A DNA stretch of 64,000 nucleotides from Heptranchias perlo (lineage: Eukaryota). The notes beneath the pieces were generated by a model. It ran no database searches and was not told the origin of the DNA. It was given only the letters and a program-made list of their open reading frames with translations. Of the stretch, positions 4,389-64,000 are shown one piece after another. The DNA lies in assembly GCF_035084215.1 (NCBI RefSeq), contig NC_090335.1, positions 39,308,001 to 39,372,000 of the forward strand, in the 5' to 3' direction. Position 1 is the first letter of the stretch. Every line of letters starts with the position of its first letter. A program made the translations under genes and the position numbers.

Positions 4389-5009
4389 GAATAGTTTATC
4401 TTAGTTGCTATCCAAGAGGGATTTAGTGGTAACTGGGGCAGAAAGGTTTTCGGAACATTGGACTGGTGTGTATGTGCAATCTGTATTTCTTATACATATA
4501 TGACATATGTTTTGATGGCGAATGTATGGAGACTTATCATTAATATGTGCTTTAATCATTTCCTGTAAAAAAAGGAAATAATGTTATGAATGAACAGAGT
4601 CTACACTCTTGAAGCACATATTTGAATACATTCAGAACAAGCAATTCATTACACATTTCAAATTACATATTTATGAAATGCATTGGAGAAAAACTTTGAC
4701 AAGATTAAAAGTAGGCAACACTTATTTTTGTTAATCACAGTGCAGCAGGCCAACATTTAGCGACCGGTTGGTTTAAATTTAAATTTTTCAGATTATGCAA
4801 GAACAAGAACGAGTAATCCAAACAATCAAACTCTTTACCTAATAAAATTCTTCCTGCAAATTTCTCTGTTTCTTCCGTGTCCTGCTCCCACCCTGTCCAA
4901 CAGTCCCCCCACACAATTATGTAAATGTCACAGGGGGAGAAACAAACAGGAGAAATAAATAAAACAAAATAATACCAAAAATAAAGATGGGATGGTAATA
5001 CGAAAGAAA

Positions 5010-5270
5010 TATGTGGGGATAAGGAGACAGGTTGCTGGTTTTCCCATGGTCCAGGGTGCAATCGATGGCATCCACATTGTTTTGCGAGCTCTTACAGAAA
5101 ACCCCTCAACTACATCAAGTAGGAAGGGCTTCCACTCCCTGAACATCCAGATAGTGTGTGACAACATGCAGAGGATCTTACATGTGAATGTGAGATATGC
5201 TGGAAGTTGTCACATTGCTTTCATCCTTCAAAATTCAGCCCTTCCTGATCTTTTCAGGGAAGAAAATCAT
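5010..5270 (+). pseudogene. Old Harbinger transposase remnant, 5' half (target of the nested insertion)
   Basis: VAGFPMVQGAIDGIHIVL...RKGFHSLNIQIVCD...RYAGSCHIAFILQNS, cut at 5270 by the young element. Confidence 0.9.
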
Positions 5271-5528
5271 GGGCTCGAATTTAGCAGGCCTGCGGGTTCC
5301 CAGCGGGTGGTCCTCCGGGAGCGTCGAAAACGCGGACGGGTAATTGTTCGCGTCCCCCACGCGATCGCGGGATAATTGGACCCATTAAGGCCTGCTTCCG
5401 GGTTCTGCGCTCCCCAGCTGCGTGCCGGCCGGCTGCGCATGCGCAGTACCGTCGACGCGATGTAGGAGCTCCAGTTAAAGGGGCAGTCTCCCAAAGCCCC
5501 TCCTGCTGCAAGCAAGAGGTCTGGGAGA

Positions 5529-7368
5529 ATGGCTCAACCAAGGGGAAAGGCTGCGCCCCGTTTTTCAGATCTGGCACTGCAGCTGATGCTGGAGGGCGTG
5601 AGGAGGAGGAGGGAAACACTCTTCCCTGAGGATGGGCGCAAGTTCCCTGCCGCCGCAACCAGGAAGGCATGGGCAGAGGTGGCGGCGGAGGTGAGCAGCA
5701 GGGGCAACACCCCAAGGACTTGGGAGCAGTGCCGCAAGCGCTTCAATGACCTGACTAGGTCTGGCAAGGTGAGTACACCAACGCACCCTCCCACATCCCG
5801 TCCCCACCATCACGCCAAGCAGATCACAACCCCCTCCTGCACAGCCACCACTGCGCTCCATCAGCAATCCTCACAGCCACTCATTCACCATCCTCGCCGT
5901 GCACGCAAGTACCCACCGTCCCTGACCCCACCCGAACACTACCACACACCCCAATCCCCATGCAATGGGATGGGCACGTGGCCCACACTTCCTCCCATCC
6001 GTTCCGCGCCACGCTCAACCCAACCACACCGATGCTCGATGCGTCTAACGATGCAAGACGCACCCACTCACACATCTGTGTTTTGCCTTCACAGGAGAAG
6101 AGGAGCAAGAACAACCGCGAAAGGGCACGCACCGGAGGTGGGCCGCCGCAAGTGGTGGAGCTCACCGACGCAGAGGTGGAGGCGCTCGACCTCGCCCGCA
6201 CGCGACATTGCCTGTCGGTGGCCGATGGCGAGTGTGTCGCTGCCGAAATGGGCGGTAAGGGAAAGCTGACACTCAACACCCATGATCGCGAGTGACCGTA
6301 TCATCACCTGCCATCAGGCGCACTGTCAAGTTGGTCCACATGCCTCAAAGTGCCCTCTGTTCTCTTGCAGGTGCGTCTTTGGATCAAGCGAGCATGGAGG
6401 GCGATTCCTCAGAGGACATGGCGGTCTCTGAGGGTGCATCGTCACATCAGAGCCAACCATCCACCAGCGCAGAGACACGCACCTCGGTGGGTCCCCCTCG
6501 CCAACTAGTTGGGGTAGCACTTGGTGAGTCACTGCGCACGAGTGAGCATGAGCAGACCCTGGTGGCAGGGGCAGCCGCGGAGGGTCCGCGACGGAGGGAG
6601 CACTCATCTCCAGGCTCTGCTCAGCCGGACCCAGATGCTGAACCCAGGGGGCCACCAGAGAAAAGGAGAGTCGTCGAGGGCCACCAGCTAATTGCTGAGG
6701 TGCTGGCAGAGGTGCCGCGCGCATTGTCCACAATAGCGCAGGCGATGGAGGAGTCCACCTCCTGCATGTGGGCATTGGTGGCGCAGGCACAGGAGGGTAC
6801 CGACGACACAGTGTCGCAGGTAGGTGCGGGACTGTCTGCGGTGGAGGACAGGCTGGCCTCCCTCGAGCGTCACGCACAGCTCCACTTCGAGTCCTTGCAG
6901 GCCCTCACAACGTCTGTACGGATTCAGGGTGAGCAACATTCCGACGCCACCAACAGGCTGAGGGATACACTAGGGGTGGCCTTGCAAGGCCTCACACATG
7001 CCATCCAAACTGCCGTCCAGCAGGGTGGAAGGGGTGATGTGGGCCGAGGCCAAGAGAGGGATGATGGTGACCGGGGACATGGAAGCGGGGACGCCTCTCA
7101 AGGCGTCCCCACGTCCCACCCGTCGCCCACCTCTCAACCAGCACCCGCAATGGTGCCTCCTCTCCAGGTGGCCGAGTCTGCCCCTGCCCCGGTGCAGGAG
7201 GAGCAGTCTGTGGAGGTGCCCTCACGGGCACCGAAACCCAGGGGCCGTCCGCCAAAAGCATCTACCCGGTCAAGGCAAGAAGACGAGCAACCTGCCACTA
7301 CCTCTGCTGGAGCCACAGGGGTAGCACCACGTAGGGGTTCCCGGAGAAGAATTCCAAAGGCCTTATAA
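5529..7368 (+). CDS. Harbinger Myb/SANT-like DNA-binding partner protein, 3 exons (5529-5768, 6095-6254, 6371-7368), ~465 aa
   Basis: APRFSDLALQLMLE...KAWAEVAAEV...RTWEQCRKRFNDL Myb/SANT-like domain; donors AAG|GTGAGT and GCG|GTAAGG, acceptors TTCACAG and CTTGCAG; 240+160+998 nt splice in frame; RTGGG motif in exon 2; KPRGRPPK near the C-terminus. Confidence 0.9.
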
Positions 7369-7665
7369 TCACAAAGGGAATACACCAGGGTGTTTATTAT
7401 TTTGTACTTTGTTTCTTAAATGATGTCACATTCCACATATTAAATAGTCTATTCTCACCACTCCTGCCACCTCTCGTCCATTCTTCCGCGGCTTGTGCAG
7501 TAGTTGCGTTCCGTGGAGGCCATCATGACGGCGAACACCTGCTGCCACCCATTGGGCACACTGCTGTGGGTGCAGGATTACTGGCAGCACTCTTCAGTGG
7601 AGGGGGCTGGTATGGCCGCTCGCATGTGCAGGTGAGGAGATGCGAGCGCCTCGCAGTGTCTGACT

Positions 7666-8919
7666 CTAGGAGAACCGTTGACGTATGAGTGCGTCCCTGG
7701 CCCGGCGACCATCCCGGTGAGTCGCGGCTCGGCGCATGGGTCGTCCAACATCCTCGGGCGCGTCCTCCTCCTCCTCCTCCGCCTCCTCCTCCTCCTCCTC
7801 CTCCTCCTCCTCGCCCTCGCCTTCCTCAATGTGGGTGGCGGGTGTGGATGGGGCCTCCTCCAGCGGCACCCCTCTCTGTTGGGCCATGTTGTGCAGGGCA
7901 CAGCAGACAACTATGATTCGTCCCACTCTGAATGGTGTGTATTGGAGCGCTCCCCCAGAACGATCAAGGCACCTGAAGCGCATCTTGAGAAGCCCTATGG
8001 TCTGCTCAATTGTAGACCTGGTAGCAGTGTGGCTGTCATTGTACCGACGCTCCGGCTCGGTGATGGGGTTCCTCAGAGGTGTCATGAGCCACGTGTGGAG
8101 GGGATACCCCTTGTCGCCGAGGAGCCAGCCGTTGCCGGCGTTGGGTGCCTGCAGGATGGGCGGGACGGCGGACTCCCTGAGGACGAAGGCATCGTGGCAG
8201 CTGCCGGGGTATCTGGCGCACACGTGTAGGAATCTCTGGCGGTGGTCACAGATGAGCTGGGCGTTCATGGAGTGATACCCCTTCCTGTTGATGAACAGCC
8301 CTGGCTCATGCGGAGGTGCCCGTATTGCGATGTGGGTGCAGTCGATTACACCCTGCACCCGTGGGAAGCCGGCCATGGCATGGAATCCAACCGCCCTCTC
8401 CATCTGGCTGCGCTCGTCCATGGCGAAGTTGATGTAGTGGGAGGCCCTGCGGAACAACCCATCGGTGACCTGCCTTATGCACTTGTGTGCAGAGGACTGA
8501 CAGACCCCGGTGATGTCCCCGGTGGCACCCTGGAAGGAACCGGATGCGAAGAAGTTGAGGGCAGTGGTGACTTTGACGGCGACAGGTAAGAAGATGCTGC
8601 TTGGTCCATCAGGGAGCAGCTCGTCGTTAAGGAGGCTGCAGATGTCGGCGACTACCTGGCGATTGACTCTGAGCCTCCGTATGCACTGCTCCTCGGAGAG
8701 GTCCATGAAGCTGAGCCTCGCTCTGTACACCCTGTGCGGAGGGTGGTGCCTCCTGCGACGCATCTCTCTCTGCGGTTGCCCGCCCTCCTGCTGTGCAGGT
8801 GGGTGTGCCGCAGCACCGTGTTGGGGGGCCCCACCTCTCCGAGGCGGACGGCGTGGACTGTGAGGCTGCTGGGGCTGGTCATCCTGTTCGTCCTCCGACG
8901 ATGTCAACGCACCACCCAT
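7666..8919 (-). CDS. Harbinger (HARBI1-family) DDE transposase, ~417 aa from the ATG at 8919
   Basis: Uninterrupted ORF with LPVAVKVTTALNFFASGSFQ, VQGVIDCTH (D), LLGDKGY (D), TIEQTIGLLKMRF (E), CCALHN; acidic poly-Glu tail. The frame is open further upstream, so the start is inferred. Confidence 0.95.
   Translation of the reverse strand: MGGALTSSEDEQDDQPQQPHSPRRPPRRGGAPQHGAAAHPPAQQEGGQPQREMRRRRHHPPHRVYRARLSFMDLSEEQCIRRLRVNRQVVADICSLLNDELLPDGPSSIFLPVAVKVTTALNFFASGSFQGATGDITGVCQSSAHKCIRQVTDGLFRRASHYINFAMDERSQMERAVGFHAMAGFPRVQGVIDCTHIAIRAPPHEPGLFINRKGYHSMNAQLICDHRQRFLHVCARYPGSCHDAFVLRESAVPPILQAPNAGNGWLLGDKGYPLHTWLMTPLRNPITEPERRYNDSHTATRSTIEQTIGLLKMRFRCLDRSGGALQYTPFRVGRIIVVCCALHNMAQQRGVPLEEAPSTPATHIEEGEGEEEEEEEEEEAEEEEEDAPEDVGRPMRRAATHRDGRRARDALIRQRFS
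7764..7812. repeat. (CCT)n microsatellite encoding the transposase poly-Glu tract
   Basis: Directly visible CCT run. Confidence 0.9.
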
Positions 8920-9452
8920 CTGGCAGGTGTTGGTGTGAGGGGTTGTGCAGGGTAGGTGGGTGGGTCCTCGGACTGGGGCTGCGGTTTCGTGTCGGTCTGT
9001 CCTCTGGCTTGGCGGGGGTTGGTGGAGGGCAGGGGTTGCCCTATGTGACGCGGTGGCCTCCTGCGTGGGTGAGGGCGCTCCCCCGTGGAGCGCACCTTGG
9101 CACCTGGCACAGGCTGCTGGCTGCAACACGCCTGGTTTGAAGGGTCCTGTTTCCCCCAGTGTGGGAAACTGACTGCTTTGACCGTAAAATCCCACACTTC
9201 CTCTTTTGACAGCTGCTTCAGCTCATTAACTGACCACAACGAGCAAGTTAAGTACTCTCAAGTGGAACCCCGCTGGCTTTAATTGCCTGCGGGATTCCCA
9301 CCAGCGGGGCTTGCGCGCGCAGCCCCGCACGTCAGCGCGGTACCCGGAAGTGGCCGGGATTTCGTCCGATTCCGGTCACGTGATCGGAGATCGGGATTTT
9401 CGGGGCCCCCCCGCTGGAAACCCGCAGGTAACCCGACCCTAAAATCGAGCCC

Positions 9453-9850
9453 CATGTCACTAGATGGCTCTGGTTGATAAAACCTATCACTGCTCCTATG
9501 GATTATGACTCTCCTAAGAGTTGCCTGAAAAGCAGCAGAGGAGTGCTACAATGAAGTACATGTCTCTATAAGATTGGGCATCAAGAGGTCTTAAGGGGAC
9601 TTAAAGGACACTTTCGCTGCTTAGACTGGTAGGGAAGGGCTCCAGCTCGGGTGTCACACATAGTTAGAGCCTGCTGTACTCTGTTCAACTTTGCCAATCA
9701 AATAGACATTGCTCAAGAGTCAACCTAGCTTATTTGGAGGCAGAACTACAAGGAGGAGAACATCATGATGACCTGCGCTCAGAGGATTCCTCAGTCGCTA
9801 ATACACGGGGCATCAGAGCACAACTGATCACTGAAGTCTTCACTTCTGTG
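9453..9850 (+). pseudogene. Old Harbinger transposase remnant, 3' half
   Basis: Continues the 5010-5270 piece with frameshifted W-L..DK..Y, WIMT, EECYNEVH and LKGHFRCLD motifs. Confidence 0.8.
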
Positions 9851-15649: not shown

Positions 15650-16052
15650 TGAAATCAGTGGGCTATCAGTTGCACCCTCCTTTTTGGAGGCTACTGGCTG
15701 TCCTGTCCCATGTCCTCTCCTTCCGTGCACCTCCCCTTTCATCACCATTGCCTTCAGCTACTGGAAACAGCAAGCCTTTCTTCATTGTGCTATTATACCG
15801 AATTCAGCAAAGTAGAATGATTCATGAAACTCTCACTGGACCGTATTGTAGGGCTTCATCAGATTTATCCAGGCACCTAAAATCAGAACTTGAGAATTCT
15901 TCTCTATGCACTTCTTGTGGTGGCATGGGCCTCATTATAGCCATGTCTTCAAAATAAAGCAGTTCTTTGAGCAGAGCTGAGTAAACCTGACAGCAATATT
16001 CCTGCCTGATCCTCCACCAACCTTCAGTAGCAGCAAACAAAATGGCCTCCAC
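15650..16052 (-). pseudogene. Internally deleted Harbinger transposase remnant
   Basis: N-terminal piece fused directly to FRCLDKSDEALQYGPVRVS (compare FRCLDRSGGALQYTPFRVG in the intact copy). Confidence 0.7.
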
Positions 16053-20305: not shown

Positions 20306-22428
20306 GATTCTACACCTCAATTCCTCTGCTCTTGTTCAGAAAGAAATAAAAGTTTTCATCAGTTTTGTTTGCCTATCAGGAGACCCTAGGGTAGATTTTC
20401 CTCTCAGGACTTTCCAAGAGTGCAGCGTGGGTGGAACAAGATAGGATGACCATTGTCCCCCCTGCCCCCACTTCCACTCCTGCAATTTCTTGTGGGGTCT
20501 AAATACCATAGTGTGGGCATGCACCCAGCAAATATGTCAATGCAAAATTGGGTTTAAGCCTACAAGGGGGAGGGAAGCCAAGTGCTACCAGGGCCTTTCA
20601 TGCAGCAGCTTAGTTAACTAAGATCATAATTCAGTTAGTTTTAGCATAGTTATGGAAAAGGACAAAGATGGAACTGGAGTTAAAGTTCTTAACTGGGGAA
20701 AGCCAATTTTACGAAGCTGAGAAACGATTTAGCAAAAATGGACTGGAAACAGCTTCTTGAAGGTAAATCAATGTCAGAGCAGTGGGAGACATTCAAGGAG
20801 GATATAGTGAGGGTTCAGAGCAAATATGTTCCCACAAAGGAAAAGGGTGGGACTCCCAATTCTAATGACCCCTGGGTGTCAAGGAGCATACAGGGTAAGA
20901 TAAAGCAGAAAAGGAAAGTTTATGTTGGACACCGAGAGCTCAATACTAGAGAAAGCCGAGAGGAGTATAGAAAGTGCAGGGGTGAAATTAAAAAGGAAAT
21001 TAGGAAAGTAAAGAGAGGACATGAAAAAATATTGGCAAATAAAATCAAGGAAAACCCAAAGATGCTTTATAAATGCATTAAGAGCAAGGAGGATAACTAA
21101 GGAAAGAGTAGGGCCTGTTAGAGACCACAAAGGTAACCTATGTGTGGAGGCAGAAAATGTTGGTATGGTTCTTAATGAATACTTTGCATCTATCTTCACA
21201 AAAGAGAGGGATGATGCAGACATTATAGTTAAGGAGGAGGAATGTGAAATAGTGGATGGGATAAATATAGTGAGAGAGGAAGTATTAAGTGGATTAGTAT
21301 CTTTGAAAGTAGATGAATCACCAGGGCCAGATGAAATGTATCCCAGGCTGCTAAAAGAAGCAAGGGAGGAAACAAAGGAGACTCTGAGCATCATTTTGCA
21401 ATCCTCCCTGGATACAGGGATGGTGCCAGAGGATTGGAGGACTGCTTTTGTTGTACCGTTGTTTAAAAAGGGAGCGAGAGATAGACCGAGTAATTACAGG
21501 CCAGTCTGTCTAACCTTGGTGGTGGGCAAATTATTGGAATCAATTCTGAGGGACAGGATAAACCGTCACTTAGAAAGGCACAGAGTAATCAAGGACAGTC
21601 AGCATGGATTTGTTAAGGGAAGGTTGTGTCTTACTAACTTGATTGAATTTTTTGAGGCGGTTACAAGGACGGTAGATGAGGATAGTGCATTTGATGTAGT
21701 CTACATGGATTTTAGCAAGGCTTTTGACAAAGTCCCACATGACAGACTGGTCAAAAGGTAAAAGCCCATGGGATCCAAGGGAAAGTGGCAAGTTGGATCC
21801 ACAGTTGGCTCAGTGGCAGAACGCAAAGGGTCGATGGGTGTTTTTGGGACTCGAAGGATGATTCCAGAGGGGTTCCGCAGGGCTGAGTACTAGGTCCCTT
21901 GCTTTTTGTGGTATATATTAATGATTTGAACTTTAAATGTAGGGAGCATGATTAAGAAGTTTGAAGATGATACAAAAATTGGCCGTGCGGTTGATAGTGA
22001 GGAGGAAAACTGTAGACTGCAGAAAGATATCAATGGACTGGTCAGGTGGGCAGAAAAGTGGCAAATTGAATTCAATCCAGAGAAATGTGAGGTATTGCAT
22101 TTGGGGAGTGCAAACAATGCAAGGTATTACACAATAAATGGGAGGGTACTGAGAGGTGTAGAGGAAGTGAGGGACCTTGGAGTGCATGTCCACAGATCCC
22201 TGAAGGTAGCATGACAGATAGATAAGGTGGTTAAGAAGGCATATGGAATACTTTCCTTTATTAGCCGAGGCATAGAATATAAGAGCTGGGAGGTTATGCT
22301 GGAACTGTATAAAACATTAGTTAGGCCACAGCTTGAGTACTGCGTACAGTTTTGGCCACCACATTACAGGAAAGATGTATGTAAGGAATCTTACAACACC
22401 AGGTTATAGTCCAACAGTTTTATTTGAA

Positions 22429-26705: not shown

Positions 26706-26719
26706 GTATCACACCCTTG

Positions 26720-27190
26720 CTGGGTATCACACACAATCTGCACATTCAACGAGTGGAACCTATTGATAAAATAATTAATCCCATGTTTCAGGTTTTGATC
26801 CACCTTCTCTTGTTCCTGTTTATGTATGACAGTGGGTACCAAGTTGGCACCTTCAGAGCCACATGGGTGCCGTCATTAGCCCCCTGCACCTTAGGGAAGT
26901 TAGCAAGCCTGTTAAAGTGAATGACCCTGTCTCTTCACTCCACATGGGACATGCCATAGCTGATGAAGTCAGGTGGCCTCCGAGAAAGGGCATTTGTCTC
27001 CTGGTGAATGAAGGCCCATACAGCTCCATGGCTGATATTACAGATCCCCCAGTGACTGACTGGAAGGATTCGGTAAAAGTTCAGGTGGTGGTGACCTTCA
27101 TCTGTAACGATAACACTCTGTGGAAAGTTCACAATGGCTTCAGGCGTTCTTCCACAAAATCGCACAGATAGCCAATGGCTTGCTTCGAGA
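26720..27190 (-). pseudogene. Harbinger transposase remnant
   Basis: DGTHVALKVP and RFHSLNVQIVCD motifs, frameshifted. Confidence 0.75.
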
Positions 27191-38039: not shown

Positions 38040-38460
38040 CCTTAGATGAGGTTCTAAGCTCAAGCTTTGACCTCCAATCTCCAGCAGTCTCTTGCTGCAT
38101 GCTGCTTTCCACAGAAAATGTGATGAAAACCTTGGTGCTGGCAAACAATGCATCAGTTACAAGTTTAATACAATTGTGGACTAACAATTTGGAGATGTGA
38201 CAGAGGTCTCTTGCATTTGCGTGGAAGCAGCCTGTTGTGTAAAAGTTCAAAGCAGCTGTGATCTCGATAACCATTTACAGATCTATCCCTGTGCTGGAAT
38301 TGCTCTGCAAGTCTGGCTGCATGAGTGTGCAGAATTCAGGAATCTTAGCAAGGTTTCTTCAGACCGATCCAGATAAGAGACCTCAGCCCATGAATATGAG
38401 CATAGGAATGTGTCTGAATTGAGCACCTAAGGTACAACATCACTTGTCTGGCATACCCTC
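38040..38460 (-). pseudogene. Harbinger transposase N-terminal remnant
   Basis: EITAALNFYTTGCF...DLCHIS...HNCIKLVTDALF. Confidence 0.75.
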
Positions 38461-43879: not shown

Positions 43880-46226
43880 TTGAAAAGTGCATGTGTGTAA
43901 GCGCATGAAGCATGAAAAATAAGGTTGGTGAGCTGCAGGTGCAAATAGCCACATGGCAATATGATGTAATGATGATAACTGAGACCTGGCTCAAAAAAGG
44001 CAGGATTGAGTACTAAATATTCCTGGATACAAAGAAACAAGGAGGGTTAAATTGGATAAACCCTGAGTCTGGGCACGGGGGTCACGGTGTACGATTAACC
44101 CACGCCCGGTCGTTGAGATGCAGGCAGCACGTGAGATTCCTGCTGCCGGATCATCTTTATTGCTGCGTGCAGCCAGTGCGACCACACGCAGCGCATCATG
44201 CAGGTTAATGCCTGCTACCCTGGCAGCAGTCATGACGCCTTCATTATGCGGCAATCCAACGTCCCACCAATCTTTCAACCAGCATGGCAAGTCAAAGGCT
44301 GGCTATTGAGTGACAAGGGCTATCCCCCCATGAGGTGGTTCATGACTCCGGTCAGGAATGCACACACACATGCAGAGCAGGCCTACGATGAGAAGCATGC
44401 GGCCACACAAAACGTCATCGAGCACACCGTAGGCATCCTAAAACACCGCTTCCGGTATGGAATGCATCCGAGACAGTTTTCTAGAACAATATTTTGAGGA
44501 ACCAACTAGGGAACAGGCTATTTTAGATCTAGTATTGTGTAATGAGACAGGATCAATTAGGAAGATGATGCTGCCAAAGTCACAGTAAAAGAGGAAGTAA
44601 TTGAGATACTGAATGGGCTAAAAATTGATAAAGAGGAGATTCTAGAAAGGCTGGCTGTACTTAAAATAGATAAGTCACCCGATCCGGATGGGATGCATCC
44701 TAGATTGCTGAGGGAAGGAAGGGTGGAAATTGTAGCGGTACTGGCCATAATCTTCCAATCCTCCTTAGATAAGGAGGTGGTGCCAGAGGACTGGAGAATT
44801 GCAAATGTTACACCCTTGTTCAAAAAGGGTGTAAGGATAAACCTGGCAACTACAGGCCAGTAAGTTTAACCTCAATGGTGGGGAAGCTTTTAGAAATGAT
44901 AATCCGGGACAAAATTAATAGTCAACTAGAAAGTGTGGATTAATTAGGGAAAGCCAGCACGGATTTGTTAAAGACAAACCGTGTTTAACTAACTTGATAG
45001 AGTTTTTTGAAGAGATAACAGGGAGGGTTGATGAGGACAATACGGTTGATGTTGTGTATTTGGACTTCCAAAAGGCGTTTGATAAAGTGCCACATAATAG
45101 GCTTGTCAGCAAAATTGAAGTGCATGGAATAAAAGGGGAAGTGGCAGCATGGATACGAAATTGGCTAAGTGACAGGAAACAGAGAGTAGTGGTGGACGCT
45201 AATTTTTGGATCGGAGGAAGGTATACAGCAGTGTTCCCAGGGGTTGGTACTAGGACCACTGCTTTTTTTGATATATATTAATGACTTGGATTTGGGTGTA
45301 CAGGGCACAAATTCAAAATTTGCAGATGACACAAAACTTGGAAGTGTAGTAAACAGTGAGGTGGATAGTGATAGACTTCAAGAGGACATAAACAGGCTGG
45401 TGGAATGGACGGACACATGGCAGATGAAATTTAACGCAGAGAAGTGTGAAGTAATACATTTTGGCAGGAAGAATGAGGAGAGGCAATATAAACTAAATGG
45501 TACAATTCTAAAAGGGGTGCAGGAACAGAGAGACCTGGGGGTATATGTGCACAAACCTTTGAAGGTGGCAGGACAGGGTGAGAAAGTAGTTAAGAAAGCA
45601 TGCAGGATCCTGGGCTTTATAAAAAGAGGCATAGAGTACAAAAGCAAGGAAGTTATCTTGAACCTTTGTAAAACAGTGGTTCAGCCACAACTTGAGTATT
45701 TTGTCCAATTCTTAGGAAGGATGTGAAGGCCTTAGAGAGGGTGCAGATAAGATTTACTAGAATGGGTCCAGGGATGAGGGACTTCAGTTATGTGGATAGG
45801 CTGGCGACGTTGGGGTTGTTCTCCTTTTAGAGCAGAGAAGGTTGAGAGGAGATTTGAAAGAAGTGTTCAAAATCATGAAGGGTTTAGATAAAGTAAATAA
45901 AGAGGGACTGTTCCCATTGGCAGAAGGGTTGAGAACCAAAGGACACAGATTTAAGGTGATTGGCAAAAGAACCAAAGGCGACATGAGAAAACACTCTTTT
46001 ACACAGCGAGTAGTTATGATCTGGAATGCGCTGCCTGAAAGGGTGGTGGAAGCAGATTCAATCATGGCTTTCAAAAAAGAATTGGATAAATACTTGAAGG
46101 GAAAAAATTTGCAGGGCTATGGGGAAAGAGCGAGGGAATGGGACTAACTGGATTGCTCTTACAAAGAGCTGGCACAGGCTCAATGGGCTGAATGGCCTCC
46201 TTCTGTGCTGTAACCATTCTATGATT
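43880..46226 (+). mobile_element. Internally deleted CR1 LINE with a Harbinger fragment embedded
   Basis: Endonuclease start (ITETWL), RT motifs (DFQKAFDKV, KFADDTK), 3' UTR and tail. Confidence 0.92.
44045..44456 (+). mobile_element. Harbinger terminus fused to a transposase catalytic fragment
   Basis: First ~140 bp resemble the reverse complement of copy A's right end; then YPGSSHDAFI...WLLSDKGYP...VIEHTVGILKHRFR. Confidence 0.85.
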
Positions 46227-47149: not shown

Positions 47150-49745
47150 GCAGCAACAACTTGCATTTATATAGTTCCTTTAACATAGAAAAACATCCCA
47201 AGGCACTTCACAGAAGCGTAATCAAACAAAAAGTGACACTGATCCAAACAAGGAGATATTAGGAGAGGTAACTAATTACTTAGTTAAAGAGGTAGGTTCT
47301 ATGGAGAGTCTTAAAGAAGTAGAGAGGTGGAGAGATAGAGAGATTTAGGGATGGAATTCCAGAGCTCAGGTCATAGATGGCTGAAGGTACAGCCATCAAT
47401 TGTGGATGAAGGGAGTGAGTTTGGACATGAGGCCACAATTGGAGAGTTCTTGGGGAGTTGTAGGGCTGAAGGAGATTACAGAGAAAGGGAGGGGTGAAGT
47501 CAGAAAGGGACTTGAACACGAGAATGAGAATTTTAAATTGGAGGCATTTGGTAACAGGAGCCAATGTAGGTCAGCCAGCATAGTTGTGATGGGTGAGTGG
47601 GACATGGTGCAGGTTATGTTATAGGCAACAGAGTTTTGGATGAACTGAAGTTTATGAAGGATGGCAGGCCAGCCAAGAGGACATTCCAATAGTTGAGCAT
47701 GAAGGTAAAAAAGGCATGGATGAGGGTTGCAGCAGCAGATGGACTGAAGCAGGGGCAGAGATGTATAATGTTAGGAAGGTGGATATATACAGTCTTTGTG
47801 AAGGTGAGGATATGGGGTCAAAAGCTTAGGAGGTTGTGAACGGTCTGGACCAGCCTGAGACAGTGGCCAGGGAGGGGGATAAAATCAGTGGTGAGGAAAT
47901 GGAGTTTGTGTTGGGAGCCAAAGAGAATGGCTTTGATCTTCCCAATGTTTAACTGGAGGAAACTGCAATTCATCCAGGTCTGGATGTCGGATGCAGAGGT
48001 AGAGCTGGGTGCTGTCAGTGTACATGTAGAAGCTGATAACATGTCCTTGGATGATGCTGCCATGTGGCAGCATGTAGATGAGGAACAGGTATGGGCCAAT
48101 GACAGATCCTTGAGGGACTCCAGAGCTAATGGTCCAGATGAGGGAAGAGAAGCCACTGCTGGAGATGCACTGGCTACAATTAGATAAGTAAGAGTGGAAC
48201 CACACAAAGGCTGTCCCACCAAGTTGGACAATGGAGGACGGGTACTGGAGGAGGAAAATGCGGTGGATCGTGTCAAAGGCTATAGAGAGGTCGAGAAGGA
48301 TAAGGATGTATAGTGGACCATGTTCAAAAACCCAAAGGATGCCATTTGTGGTTTTGATTTGGGCAGTTTTAGTGCAGAGATTCAAATATGGAGTTAGAGG
48401 AAAGATGGGCACAGATTTAGGAGGCGACAACACGTTCAAGGACTTTGGCGAGGAAAGGGGGGTTGGAGAGGGGCGGTAGTTTACAAAGACAGAGGTGTCC
48501 AGGGTGGGCTTATTGAGGAGGAAAGGTGATAATGGTGGTTTTGAAAGAGAGGGGAGCAGCACCTGAGGAAAGGGAACCATTTACATTGTCAGCTAGCATG
48601 GGACCAGGAGGAGAAGTTGGGTGTTCAGCAGTTTAGAGGATATAGGGTCAAGAGAGCAGGAGATGGGTTTCATGTGCAAGGTGAATTCACAGAGGGCATG
48701 AGAGGAGATAAGAGAGAAGCCAGAGAAAGATATGGGTTCAGGGTTAAGGCAAGGGGAACCTTGTGGTAAGTTTGGCTTGGCGAGGAAGGGGAAGGGGGTT
48801 ATGCAGCTCAGGCAGCTAAATGGATGCTCCCTATCTCCGTGACAAAGAATTCCATGAGTTCCTCGCACCTGTTGTTGGAAGTGAGGGTGGAGGGTGGATG
48901 GGAAAGGGGTTTAAGGCAACTTTTTGTACTGGAGAAAAGAAGCTGGGGGTTATTTTTTCATTTCAAGATGATCCAGGAAGTAGTAAATGGTTTGTCAGTA
49001 GAGATCAATGCCCAATAGTGCTTGATGCGGTCCAGCCAGATCTGGCAATGGATGGCTAAAGCAGATGTGCGCAGTCTGCTGTGATCGAGATGATACGAGT
49101 AGAAGGGCCACGTGAGATTGTAAGGTCGCTGGGGTGGCCATTAAAATGGTTGGGAGAGTTTATATGGAGGGGGAGGTTAAGGGAGGACAGGAGGGCAGTG
49201 AAATCAGAAGAGGGAGGGCAAGGTGAGTTGAGATGGTGATTGAAATCACCGAGAATGAGGAGTCTTTCAGTGCAGAGGCTGAGTAAGGAAAGATAGGAGG
49301 ATATCTCGGTGAGAAACTCGGGAAAGGGCTTGAGATGGGAGGGGGCGTGGTAGAGAATTCCCTAATGGAGTAGGAAGAGGCATGGAACAAAGTGAGGTGC
49401 CAGAGAAGTTGGGGGAGAGACCCAGGTGTGATTTGGTAACATGGGCCACAGGTGGTTTGGGTGGGCAGCTGATGGAATGTATAGCAAGGCAGGGAGGCTT
49501 CAGTAAAGGACAAGGTATCTTCAGCTGGAGCCAAGTTTTCTTCAAGACCATGATGTCAATCCAATCATCCAGAATAAAGTCATGATTGGCAAGGGCCTTG
49601 TTTGTGAGTGAATGGATATTCTGGAGGGCAGTGCAGAAAAGGGCTTTGATTGTTGATCCACTGGCAGAGTCCAATGGGGCAGCACTGGATGGGGTGAGTA
49701 AGATGGGAAGGATGTTGGCGACTTTAGTCCCCAAGTGGCGCACTG
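47150..49745 (-). mobile_element. L2-clade LINE, degenerate ORF2
   Basis: NIHSLTNK (endonuclease start), SCSLDPI, LILLDLSIAFDTI, GVPQGSVIGP, FLQLNIGK; 3' tail ATATAAATGCAAGTTGTTG. Confidence 0.88.
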
Positions 49746-61435: not shown

Positions 61436-61888
61436 AAAGAAAGAAAATAAAGAACTTGCATTTATATAGTAACTTCCTTGATCTCAGTACATCTCAGAAT
61501 GCTTCACAGCCAATTAAGTACTTTCGAAATATAGTCACTGTAGAGAAATGCGACAGCTAGTTTTCACACAGCGAGGTCCCGTAAACAGCAATGAGATAAA
61601 TAACCAGATAATCTGCTTTTAGTGATGTTGACTGAGGAATAAATGTTGGCCAGGACAACACCTCTGCTCTTTGAATAGTGTGATGGGATTTTTTTTTACG
61701 TCCGACTGAGAAGGCTGATAGAGCCTCGATTTGATGTCTCATCTGAAAGGCAGCACCTCTGACAGTGCAGCACTCCCTCAGTACTGCATTGAAGTGTCAA
61801 TTCAGATGATATACTTAAGAGTCTGGAGTGGGGCTTGAACCCACAATCTTCTGACTTAGGGGTGAGTGTGCTACCAACTGAGCCCAGC
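61436..61888 (-). mobile_element. Near full-length SacSINE1/DeuSINE-like SINE (an older degenerate copy lies at ~61040-61432)
   Basis: GGCTCAGTTGG box A, GGTTCAAGCCC box B, conserved core and L2-like tail. Confidence 0.85.
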
Positions 61889-61929
61889 AATTAGGTCCCG
61901 GATCCTCCCTAACCTTTAATGTAATTCAG

Positions 61930-63218
61930 AACCAATTTATACCCCTAAGGGGCAAGAGCTCTACTTGCCAAAAAAAACAGCCATGGGCAACAAAAGAGGT
62001 AAGGGACAACATAAAACTAAAAGAAAAAGCATACAATAATGCAAAAAATAGCACAGATCCTGGTGACTGGGAAAGATACAAAGAACAGCAAAGGGTAACA
62101 AAACAGATAATAAGAGCTACAAAAAGGGAGTATGAAAAGAAACTTGCAAGAGATATCAAAATCAATACAAACATTTTTTACAATTATATTAGGAAAGAGA
62201 GGGTGGTCAAGAGCAATGTGGGCCCCTTAAAAACTGATAATGGTGATATTGTAAATGAAAGTAAGGAAATGAAAGACATGTTAAATAATTACTTTGTGTC
62301 AGTATTTACAGTAGAGGAAGAGGATAGCATGCCGGACATCCCAAGGAAACAAATTTTGAATCAGGGAAGGGGAGTCACCATAATTAATGGAAGTAAATTA
62401 ACAGTAATTAAGAAAATAATGGCACTAAAGAGTGACAAATCCACAGGACCAGTTGGTTTCCATCTCAGGGATTTAAAGGAAGTAGGTGAGAACAATACAA
62501 ATGCCCTAACTATAATCTTGATTGAATTTTTTGAAAAGGTGACTAAAATAGTGGACATGGAATTGAGGGCAAATTATTGACCTGGTTAGGAAATTGGCTG
62601 AGTGGCAGGAGACAGAGAATAGGGATAATGGGCAGGTACTCAAATTGGCAGGATGTGGCTAGTGGTGTCCCACAGGGATCTGTGTTGGGGCCTCAACTAT
62701 TCACTGTATTTATTAATGACTTAAATGACGAGATAGAGAGCCACATATCCAAGTTTGCCGATGACACAAAGATCAGCAGCATTGTAAGCCGTGTAGATGG
62801 AAGCATAAAATTACAGAGAGATATTAATAGATTAAGTGAATGGGCAAAACTGTGGCAAATGGATTACAATATAGGCAAGTGTGAGGTCATCTACTTTGGA
62901 CCTGAAAAGATAGATCAGAGTACTTTCTAAATGGTGAAAAACTCGAAACAGTGGAGTTCCAAAGAGACTTAGGGGTCCATGTACATAGATCATTAAAATG
63001 TCATGGACAGGTACAGAAAATAAACAAAAAGGCTAATGGAATGCTGGCCTTTATATCTAGAGGACTAGAATGCAAGGGGGTAGAAGTTTTGCTACAGTTA
63101 CACAAAGCCCTGGTTAGATCACACCTGGAATACTGTGTTCAGTTCTGGGCATTGCACCTTAGGAAGGATATATTGACCTTGGAGAGAGTGCAGCATAGAT
63201 TTACTAAAATGATACCTG
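61930..63218 (+). mobile_element. CR1 LINE ORF2 fragment, interrupted by a Harbinger element
   Basis: GVPQGSVLGP, KFADDTK, HLEYCVQFW; stops abruptly at ...FTKMIP. Confidence 0.9.
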
Positions 63219-64000
63219 GGGCTTCATTTTAGCACCCGCTATCGGGTGGGTTCCTGGCGGGGGGGCTCCGAAATGCCCGCATGTGGGGATCCCGCAGGCA
63301 ATTAAAGCCAGCGGGATGCCACTTGAAAGTATTTATTGTGCTATTTCAGGTCATTAACTGACCTGATTAAGGGATTATGTGAGGAGGGGTGGGATTTTAT
63401 AGACAACTGGGACTGTTTCCCATACTGGGGGAAACATTACCCAGTTGAAATGGACGTGTTGCAGCCATCAGCCTGTGGCAGCTGCAAAGGTCCATTTGAC
63501 AGGTGGGGGGTGGGGGGCAGACCCTCACTCATTGCAGGAGGCCACTCTGTCACTTGGGACAAAGTTTGGCCTCCACCACCCTCCTCCTGACAAGAAAATT
63601 CACCAACTTGCACATTTACCCCGGGGTCCAGAGACATGTACCTACCTTGCGGACCCCCTCAGATGTACATCTTCCGGATGGGGGCCGCCATAGCTGCAGT
63701 CATGACCTCCTCGGAGGGCGAAAAGCATCACCAGCCTCGCCGGTCACGCCGTCCACCTCTGACACGTGGAGCTCCACCACACAGTGCTGTGACACATCCA
63801 CCTGCACAGCAGGAGGGAGGGCAACCGCAGAGAGAGATGCGTCGCAGAGGGCACTACCCTCGCCACAGGGTCCACAGACCGAGGCTCAGCTTCCTGGACC
63901 TCTCTGAGCAGCAGTGCACATGGAGGCTCAGAGTCACTCGACATGTAGTCGTGGACATCTGCAACCACCCTTCATGCCGAGCTGCTCCCGGTTGGCCCGA
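63219..64000 (+). mobile_element. Second, diverged Harbinger element (transposase end), running off the window
   Basis: TIR-like GGGCTTCATTTTAG; from the ATG at 63678: MGAAIAAVMTSSEGE...HPPAQQEGGQPQREMRRR...LSFLDLSEQQC, close to the 7666-8919 protein; +1 frameshift near 63968. Confidence 0.88.

Follow-up and report, generated by a model that had tools for sequence, protein, structure and literature searches.

Does the apparently intact Harbinger transposon at positions 5271..9452 of a 64,000-nucleotide stretch of the Heptranchias perlo genome (contig NC_090335.1, positions 39,308,001 to 39,372,000; the whole stretch is hereafter called the window) belong to a family that still moves? We propose, with a probability of roughly two in three (about 0.68), that it belongs, with its coding capacity intact, to the youngest subfamily of a PIF/Harbinger family that is autonomous, has two genes and is likely still transposing in the shark germline; that this copy is likely carried on only one homologue; and that it stems from a ladder-shaped lineage under selection. 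Present-day jumping of the family appears likely. An intact copy alone would be of moderate interest; the main interest is that a lineage which is continuous and selected seems to end in this copy, that the insertion is probably polymorphic, and that a parasite tracks the element's ends, all in a group from which Harbingers had been reported missing.

The element is 4,182 bp long, and its parts are as follows (window positions; TIR stands for terminal inverted repeat, TSD for target-site duplication, ORF for open reading frame).

5268..5270, unstranded: left TSD, CAT (sequence inspection)
5271..5284, plus strand: left TIR of 14 bp, GGGCTCGAATTTAG, identical at 13/14 positions to the reverse complement of the 9452 end, and the same in 30/30 of the best copies described below
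5289..5313, plus strand: left subterminal inverted arm (inverted-repeat search), likely a Myb-binding region
5529..5768, plus strand: Myb/SANT exon 1, with the DNA-binding domain (splice model, Pfam)
6095..6254, plus strand: Myb/SANT exon 2 (splice model)
6371..7368, plus strand: Myb/SANT exon 3, a long C-terminal region up to the stop codon TAA (splice model; junction 6254/6371 in putative RNA)
7666..8919, minus strand: Harbinger DDE transposase, 417 residues (ORF, Pfam)
8343-8341, 8115-8113 and 8007-8005, minus strand: catalytic triad codons D193, D269 and E305 (alignment)
9404..9428, minus strand: right subterminal inverted arm (inverted-repeat search)
9439..9452, minus strand: right TIR (sequence inspection)
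9453..9455, unstranded: right TSD, CAT (sequence inspection)

The transposase frame is uninterrupted (Pfam DDE_Tnp_4, E=4e-37), and its triad is intact, with D193 in IDCTH, D269 in GDKGY and E305 in TIEQT. Removal of two GT..AG introns of 326 and 116 nucleotides from the Myb gene gives a protein of 465 residues without internal stop, whose N-terminal Myb/SANT domain matches Myb_DNA-bind_5 (E=1e-10). The subterminal arms inside the TIRs are 88% complementary, and the observed/expected CpG ratio is 0.68 in the element against 0.24 and 0.30 in its flanks. Thus the features on which the original prediction had built its case for an intact element (the TIRs and CAT TSD, the open transposase with three DDE motifs, the three-exon Myb/SANT gene with canonical in-frame splicing, and CpG abundance unlike the flanks) are all confirmed. 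Substitutions at conserved residues, which it had named as evidence to the contrary, are not what we see: the sole amino-acid change private to this copy is Y59H in the transposase, N-terminal to the conserved core. The acidic tail of the transposase is encoded by a triplet-repeat tract (~7750-7830), left out of our variant counts, whose length varies only in multiples of three (415-421 residues for the transposase among the 30 best copies); the window copy is two residues below the majority length.

Exact-pattern counts in the genome gave 2,255 left-end 40-mers and 1,012 transposase-core 42-mers, and the diagnostic alleles of the youngest subfamily, in which the window copy is included, were matched 140 times; controls gave 0. 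A first search, in which 34 of 4,884 candidates were scored, gave 35 matches over the full length at 99-100% identity, counting the window copy; the near-identical relatives for which a search had been suggested are abundant. Any two of the 30 best copies are 0-11 substitutions apart (mean 4.8), with TSDs in 28/30 and both frames open in 30/30, one of them with a lost stop codon; two pairs (L011/L017 and L013/L018), the members of each lying on different contigs, are fully identical. On one chromosome (contig C1), 78 of the 81 listed exact core matches were sampled: 67 were full length, 41 had both genes intact and TSDs were present in 63/67, which, scaled to the 1,012 matches, suggests roughly 500 coding-intact copies genome-wide. 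Left-end matches taken in genome order (40 loci, with L039 and L043 left out, n=38) comprised 15 full-length elements (11 with both genes open), 21 members of a 2.05-kb family, one internally deleted element and one more distant relative.

A parsimony tree of the 67 full-length copies from C1, with four deep copies as outgroups, is nearly fully pectinate (Colless index 1515 of a maximum 2145; the Yule maximum was 411 in 2000 simulations), the variants that 63 copies share nest within one another stepwise, and terminal branches shorten along the trunk from 2.8% to zero (rho -0.78). Trunk changes in the transposase core are 4 nonsynonymous and 29 synonymous (a ratio of nonsynonymous to synonymous rates, dN/dS, of 0.04), as against 96 and 74 on the tips (dN/dS 0.39); this contrast has p=2e-6, or p=5e-5 without CpG transitions, and a tree-free count agrees, with shared nonsynonymous to synonymous variants at 2:11 for the core and at 6:22 for exons 1-2 of Myb. 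CpG transitions account for 42/542 changes (8%) on the trunk and 280/1062 (26%) on the tips, and the trunk is without the GC-to-AT bias of the tips (186:179 vs 192:650). Some small subfamilies branch off to the side and share alleles of their own; side-branch changes number 45, as against 542 on the trunk. The copies thus show not a single star-like burst but one continuous ladder lineage, each subfamily seeding the next, with its transposase core under purifying selection.

The trunk has also evolved about twice as fast as 13 older copies (67-99 changes vs 24-46, in comparisons that share one trunk). This excess is greatest at the element ends, absent from the core, and missing in comparisons with copies fewer than 80 substitutions away; its source may be error-prone repair of gaps, sequence imported from sister families, or selection that acts on the ends. 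A ladder combined with trunk selection is the pattern normal for long interspersed nuclear element (LINE) retroelements, not for DNA transposons. Mammalian LINE-1 evolves by single-lineage succession, and the present family resembles it in having one replicating lineage, successive subfamilies, trunk selection and a non-coding parasite.

The parasite is the 2.05-kb, non-coding family that makes up 21/38 of the sampled left-end matches (L031-L070; TSDs 21/21). It shares its first 64 bp and last ~460 bp with the autonomous lineage and retains pieces of Myb exon 1 and of the beginning of the transposase from a sister family, diverging by ~33% over the left 700 bp and by 15-25% in the transposase remnant. 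In 6/21 copies the last 330 bp are 0-0.3% from a recent subfamily, with 15-25% divergence further in; most of the others match old stages, and the stage of the end correlates with the age of the interior (rho 0.62, from non-independent points). Recent ends on diverged interiors imply that the partner family gained new right ends more than once, probably by short-tract exchange. Among the autonomous copies, incompatibility affects 22-30% of the pairs of non-CpG sites separated by more than 50 bp and does not fall off with distance, and in nine copies at least three borrowed alleles cluster in short spans; both would fit short conversion tracts. Linkage decay of the crossover type was looked for and not found (p=0.38 and 0.62).

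Is the window insertion itself fixed? Filled and empty alleles would share their bases up to 5271 and from 9453, and it is at this fork that the contigs of two DNA runs break: left-flank contigs end at exactly 5271 in both X1 and X2, the X1 right-flank contig begins at exactly 9453, and that of X2 consists of 141 letters, 115 of which lie on 9453-9567 and 26 of which do not match the element end, 26 being the length expected for 5242-5267. A filled allele alone should have let both flank contigs extend into the element, so an empty allele is probable. The right flank is single copy in X1 (depth 42 vs 43-47), its best paralogue reaching at most 81% among 40 of 137 candidates scored. On this indirect evidence we consider the insertion probably heterozygous. 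PIF/Harbinger excision is usually precise (PMC2836001), so the empty allele could either predate the insertion or have been left by an excision.

Contigs of putative RNA runs cover the element, with both genes, and stop short of its flanks. The GT..AG intron-2 joint 6254/6371 is present in 3/4 of these runs, and the joined sequence matches nowhere in the genome even with one mismatch allowed, which indicates that the joint reflects splicing.

We suggest that the spliced Myb/SANT protein would bind the subterminal repeats and recruit the DDE transposase, by analogy with Harbinger3_DR of zebrafish and Ping/Pong, for which both proteins are reported to be required, the Myb protein binding both the element ends and the transposase (PMC2836001). 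The transposase would, on the same analogy, cut at the GGG-ended TIRs and paste the element into a palindrome of ~13-15 bp with a 3-bp duplication, a target preference and duplication that the copies themselves display. The ladder could then arise because expression and mobility are coupled within the same copies: new, CpG-rich and probably unmethylated copies would supply the enzymes and serve as substrates, and older copies would drop out via methylation and the ever-changing element ends.

Several points weigh against this proposal. The tree copies were chosen by the exact core 42-mer on a single chromosome, and the tree is drawn on the recombining alignment described above. The tips too have dN/dS below 1, the trunk-versus-tip contrast is not significant for Myb (0.19 vs 0.32, p=0.09), and the C-terminal 330 residues of Myb are near neutral, at 0.95 on the trunk, a ratio that also leaves positive selection in an ORF1p-like arms race unsupported there. 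The empty allele is read from contig arithmetic, with the 26 letters known by length only, and X1 and X2 both derive from a single sample, which may be that of the assembly. The search for an empty site that had been proposed thus yielded contigs breaking exactly at the filled/empty fork in X1 and X2, but no 5270-to-9456 joint among the joints listed (57 more lie outside that list). The four putative RNA runs come from one sample, are seen as contigs only, and are RNA by our guess; of the two predicted splice junctions, 6254/6371 was found as stated, but 5768/6095 is not among the joints listed in the RNA contigs. At 5348, 5349 and 6803 that RNA has the alleles of subfamilies slightly older than the youngest, so expression is not assignable to the window copy, and it is evidence for transcription of the family, not of this copy. 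Finally, at the epaulette shark rate of 7e-10 mutations per base per generation (confidence interval 1.4-14e-10; PMC10587355), one substitution per element corresponds to ~350,000 generations. By this analogy near-identity would allow ages of 10^5-10^6 generations; near-identity alone is no proof that the family is active now, and the time covered by the ladder would be very long. The claim of the original prediction that the copy was recently inserted holds insofar as near-identical copies and a probable empty allele exist, but 'young' can here mean hundreds of thousands of generations.

Such a slow clock is the basis of another account, which we think rather unlikely, in which the family was recently silenced or became extinct, its near-identity being due to slow shark mutation and the empty allele to an old polymorphism. 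The low mutation rate and large long-term effective population size reported for the epaulette shark (PMC10587355) agree with it, as do the 5 substitutions that separate the window copy from its nearest sampled relative, and no de novo event was seen. It sits badly with terminal branches that grade continuously to zero, with fully identical copies, with 140 copies carrying the newest diagnostic alleles, and with the existence of spliced Myb transcripts. An unlikely reading, too, is that the ladder stems not from a relay of new copies but from a master locus, or a few of them, that persisted because gap repair restored it after each excision, with selection acting there, possibly at the level of the host. 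The single trunk with its few side-branch changes (45 vs 542) would be expected of such loci, and the little CpG decay on the trunk fits a long-lived, unmethylated donor; against this, small side subfamilies have their own shared alleles, the 2-kb family is mobilised in trans (TSDs 21/21), and the trunk evolved at about twice the rate of the 13 older copies, which is more than a static locus should.

The excess of the trunk rate, which lies in its older half, and the GC-balanced, CpG-sparing spectrum might instead mean that the trunk evolved in a faster-evolving host or vector and re-entered the shark repeatedly by horizontal transfer; purifying selection would then be the ordinary filter of transfer, which is indeed reported to impose it (PMC7070016). 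Dozens of transfers would be needed, one per small step of the ladder, the best listed matches outside cartilaginous fish are at <=51% identity, and we regard this origin as very improbable. Near-identical element pieces do occur, at depth 2-16, in the runs of two other organisms (B and D). One junction flank from organism D (run X11) occurs in G000, on contig C18 (L131), beside an element end, which for organism D, the one to which this flank test was applied, favours contamination from a repeat of very high copy number over horizontal transfer. A cross-contaminated run such as X11 could be mistaken for horizontal transfer. We continue to favour a lineage that is still moving within the shark germline.

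How does this family compare with known Harbingers? Harbinger3_DR, with its Myb-like protein and DDE transposase, was reconstructed from a consensus (PMC2836001, PMC3016246). The two elements are alike in having two genes, a 3-bp TSD and a palindromic target layout (AAACAC-CWG-GTCTTT there, from the consensus AAACACCWGGTCTTT quoted in PMC3016246, and ~AGACAC-AWT-GTGTCT here); unlike Harbinger3_DR, hundreds of native copies here keep both frames, and the TSD is relaxed. Intact native vertebrate Harbingers are already known from sea kraits, where Harbinger-Snek has 269 intact copies in L. colubrina and RNA over both genes (PMC8437027), so an intact copy is not unprecedented. That family shares with ours its many intact native copies and RNA, but it is described as following horizontal transfer, with one sharp divergence peak and few near-identical copies, whereas here a long ladder grades to identity. 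Purifying selection on PIF-like transposases has been reported in Triticeae, with a mean dN/dS of 0.2, and is also cited for Drosophila (PMC4565680); the likeness is to the selection itself, those values being pairwise, across species, and from several lineages and open fragments, in contrast to the trunk-versus-tip comparison in one genome made here. In the literature searched, which was mostly outside subscription journals and repeat databases, we found no description of this family or of ladder-like Harbinger evolution.

LINE-1 is held to experience within-genome purifying selection through cis-preference, and a survey of 307 genomes finds DNA transposons neutral within vertebrate genomes and reliant on horizontal transfer (both PMC7070016). 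A 2026 model builds on that within-genome neutrality and treats DNA transposons as self-limiting 'public' replicators (PMC13558583). The present family, being a cut-and-paste DNA element, differs from LINE-1 in a respect that, PMC7070016 argues, gives cis-preference no chance to operate. We tentatively raise the possibility, which we hold as less probable than not, that a vertebrate cut-and-paste element has here escaped the cycle of invasion, decay and death as a vertical, LINE-like selected lineage that is still jumping; its replication would be kept private by the separate DNA-binding protein and the changing ends, with a non-coding parasite copying each new end. The family offers a counter-example with which the neutral or 'public' view can be tested, having ~1,000 datable copies, old and new end variants, and an end-tracking parasite. 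Its native, unreconstructed genes and long palindromic target preference should be useful for biochemistry and vector work. The PHIS superfamily was reported absent from sharks (PMC4482050), and no Harbinger was found in the elephant shark in a study that called for other species to be tested (PMC9179366); Harbingers are abundant here, and they probably supply variation to a lineage whose point-mutation rate is very low.

The target preference also bears on classification. Empty sites were rebuilt from 25/30 best copies (three that adjoin another element and two without TSD were left out), and the palindromic preference, over ~6-7 bases on each side, amounts to 3.28 bits vs 0.40±0.11 for random sites (25 sites; 0/2000 shuffles reach it); 63 further insertion sites agree. 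The consensus of ~13-15 bp is near A-G/A-A-C-A-C/T, then the triplet A/C-W-T/G, then G/A-T-G-T-C/T-T, the duplicated triplet being loose, most commonly ATG and AAT. DDE_Tnp_4 with its triad, a separate Myb/SANT gene, short TIRs, a 3-bp TSD and an extended target preference together mark a PIF/Harbinger (PHIS) element. As defined in PMC4482050, narrow-sense PIF/Harbinger elements have a TWA TSD, and here TAA is found at 1/63 sites and TTA at 0/63. The TIR beginning GGG (12-61 bp in NuwaI/NuwaII), the length (~4.4 kb there) and the two ORFs with Myb/SANT recall the Nuwa groups, but the TSD is neither CWG nor TNA: CAG occurs at 3/63 sites and CTG at 0/63, with a central W in 88%, and of the NuwaII target C-TNA-G the flanking C/G is present in 63% but T at the first TSD position in only 19%. 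The element is thus a PIF/Harbinger superfamily member that fits none of the TSD-defined groups (TWA, CWG, TNA). Its closest named proteins belong to sharks and rays, among them Heptranchias perlo and Carcharodon carcharias; the top five align with 65-86% of the query at 60-77% identity. In many of the shark proteins annotated as 'putative nuclease HARBI1' at least one triad residue is missing (E305 replaced by K, for instance), and these may be copies of decayed transposons, not the host gene.

Head-to-tail double insertions with one TSD between them were noted at L002, L007, L068/L069 and three more sites; they include a full-length element placed after a 2-kb one. With no more than 6 exact junctions of this head-to-tail kind in the whole genome, a preference for tandem arrays was rejected. 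L006 adjoins a different element with GGGCTC ends.

The insertion has split an older decayed Harbinger transposase, which forms both flanks.

4959..5267, plus strand: older decayed Harbinger transposase, 5' part (tblastn, 52% amino-acid identity over 81 residues; DDE_Tnp_4, E=2e-8)
9456..9700, plus strand: 3' part of the same decayed transposase, with frameshifts and stops (translation across the empty site)

The break falls just before the GWLLGD-like motif of the old transposase, whose family has many paralogues at 71-81% identity (among 40 candidates scored out of 137). The window is rich in Harbinger relics: the right-end part of a sister family lies at 63257-63998, cut by the window end (72% DNA identity over 754 bp), and four more decayed transposase fragments are found at 44177-44455, 38083-38355, 26717-27048 and 15771-15881. 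Long stop-free frames at 21012-21758, 61882-62577 and 47888-48580 resemble LINE fragments.

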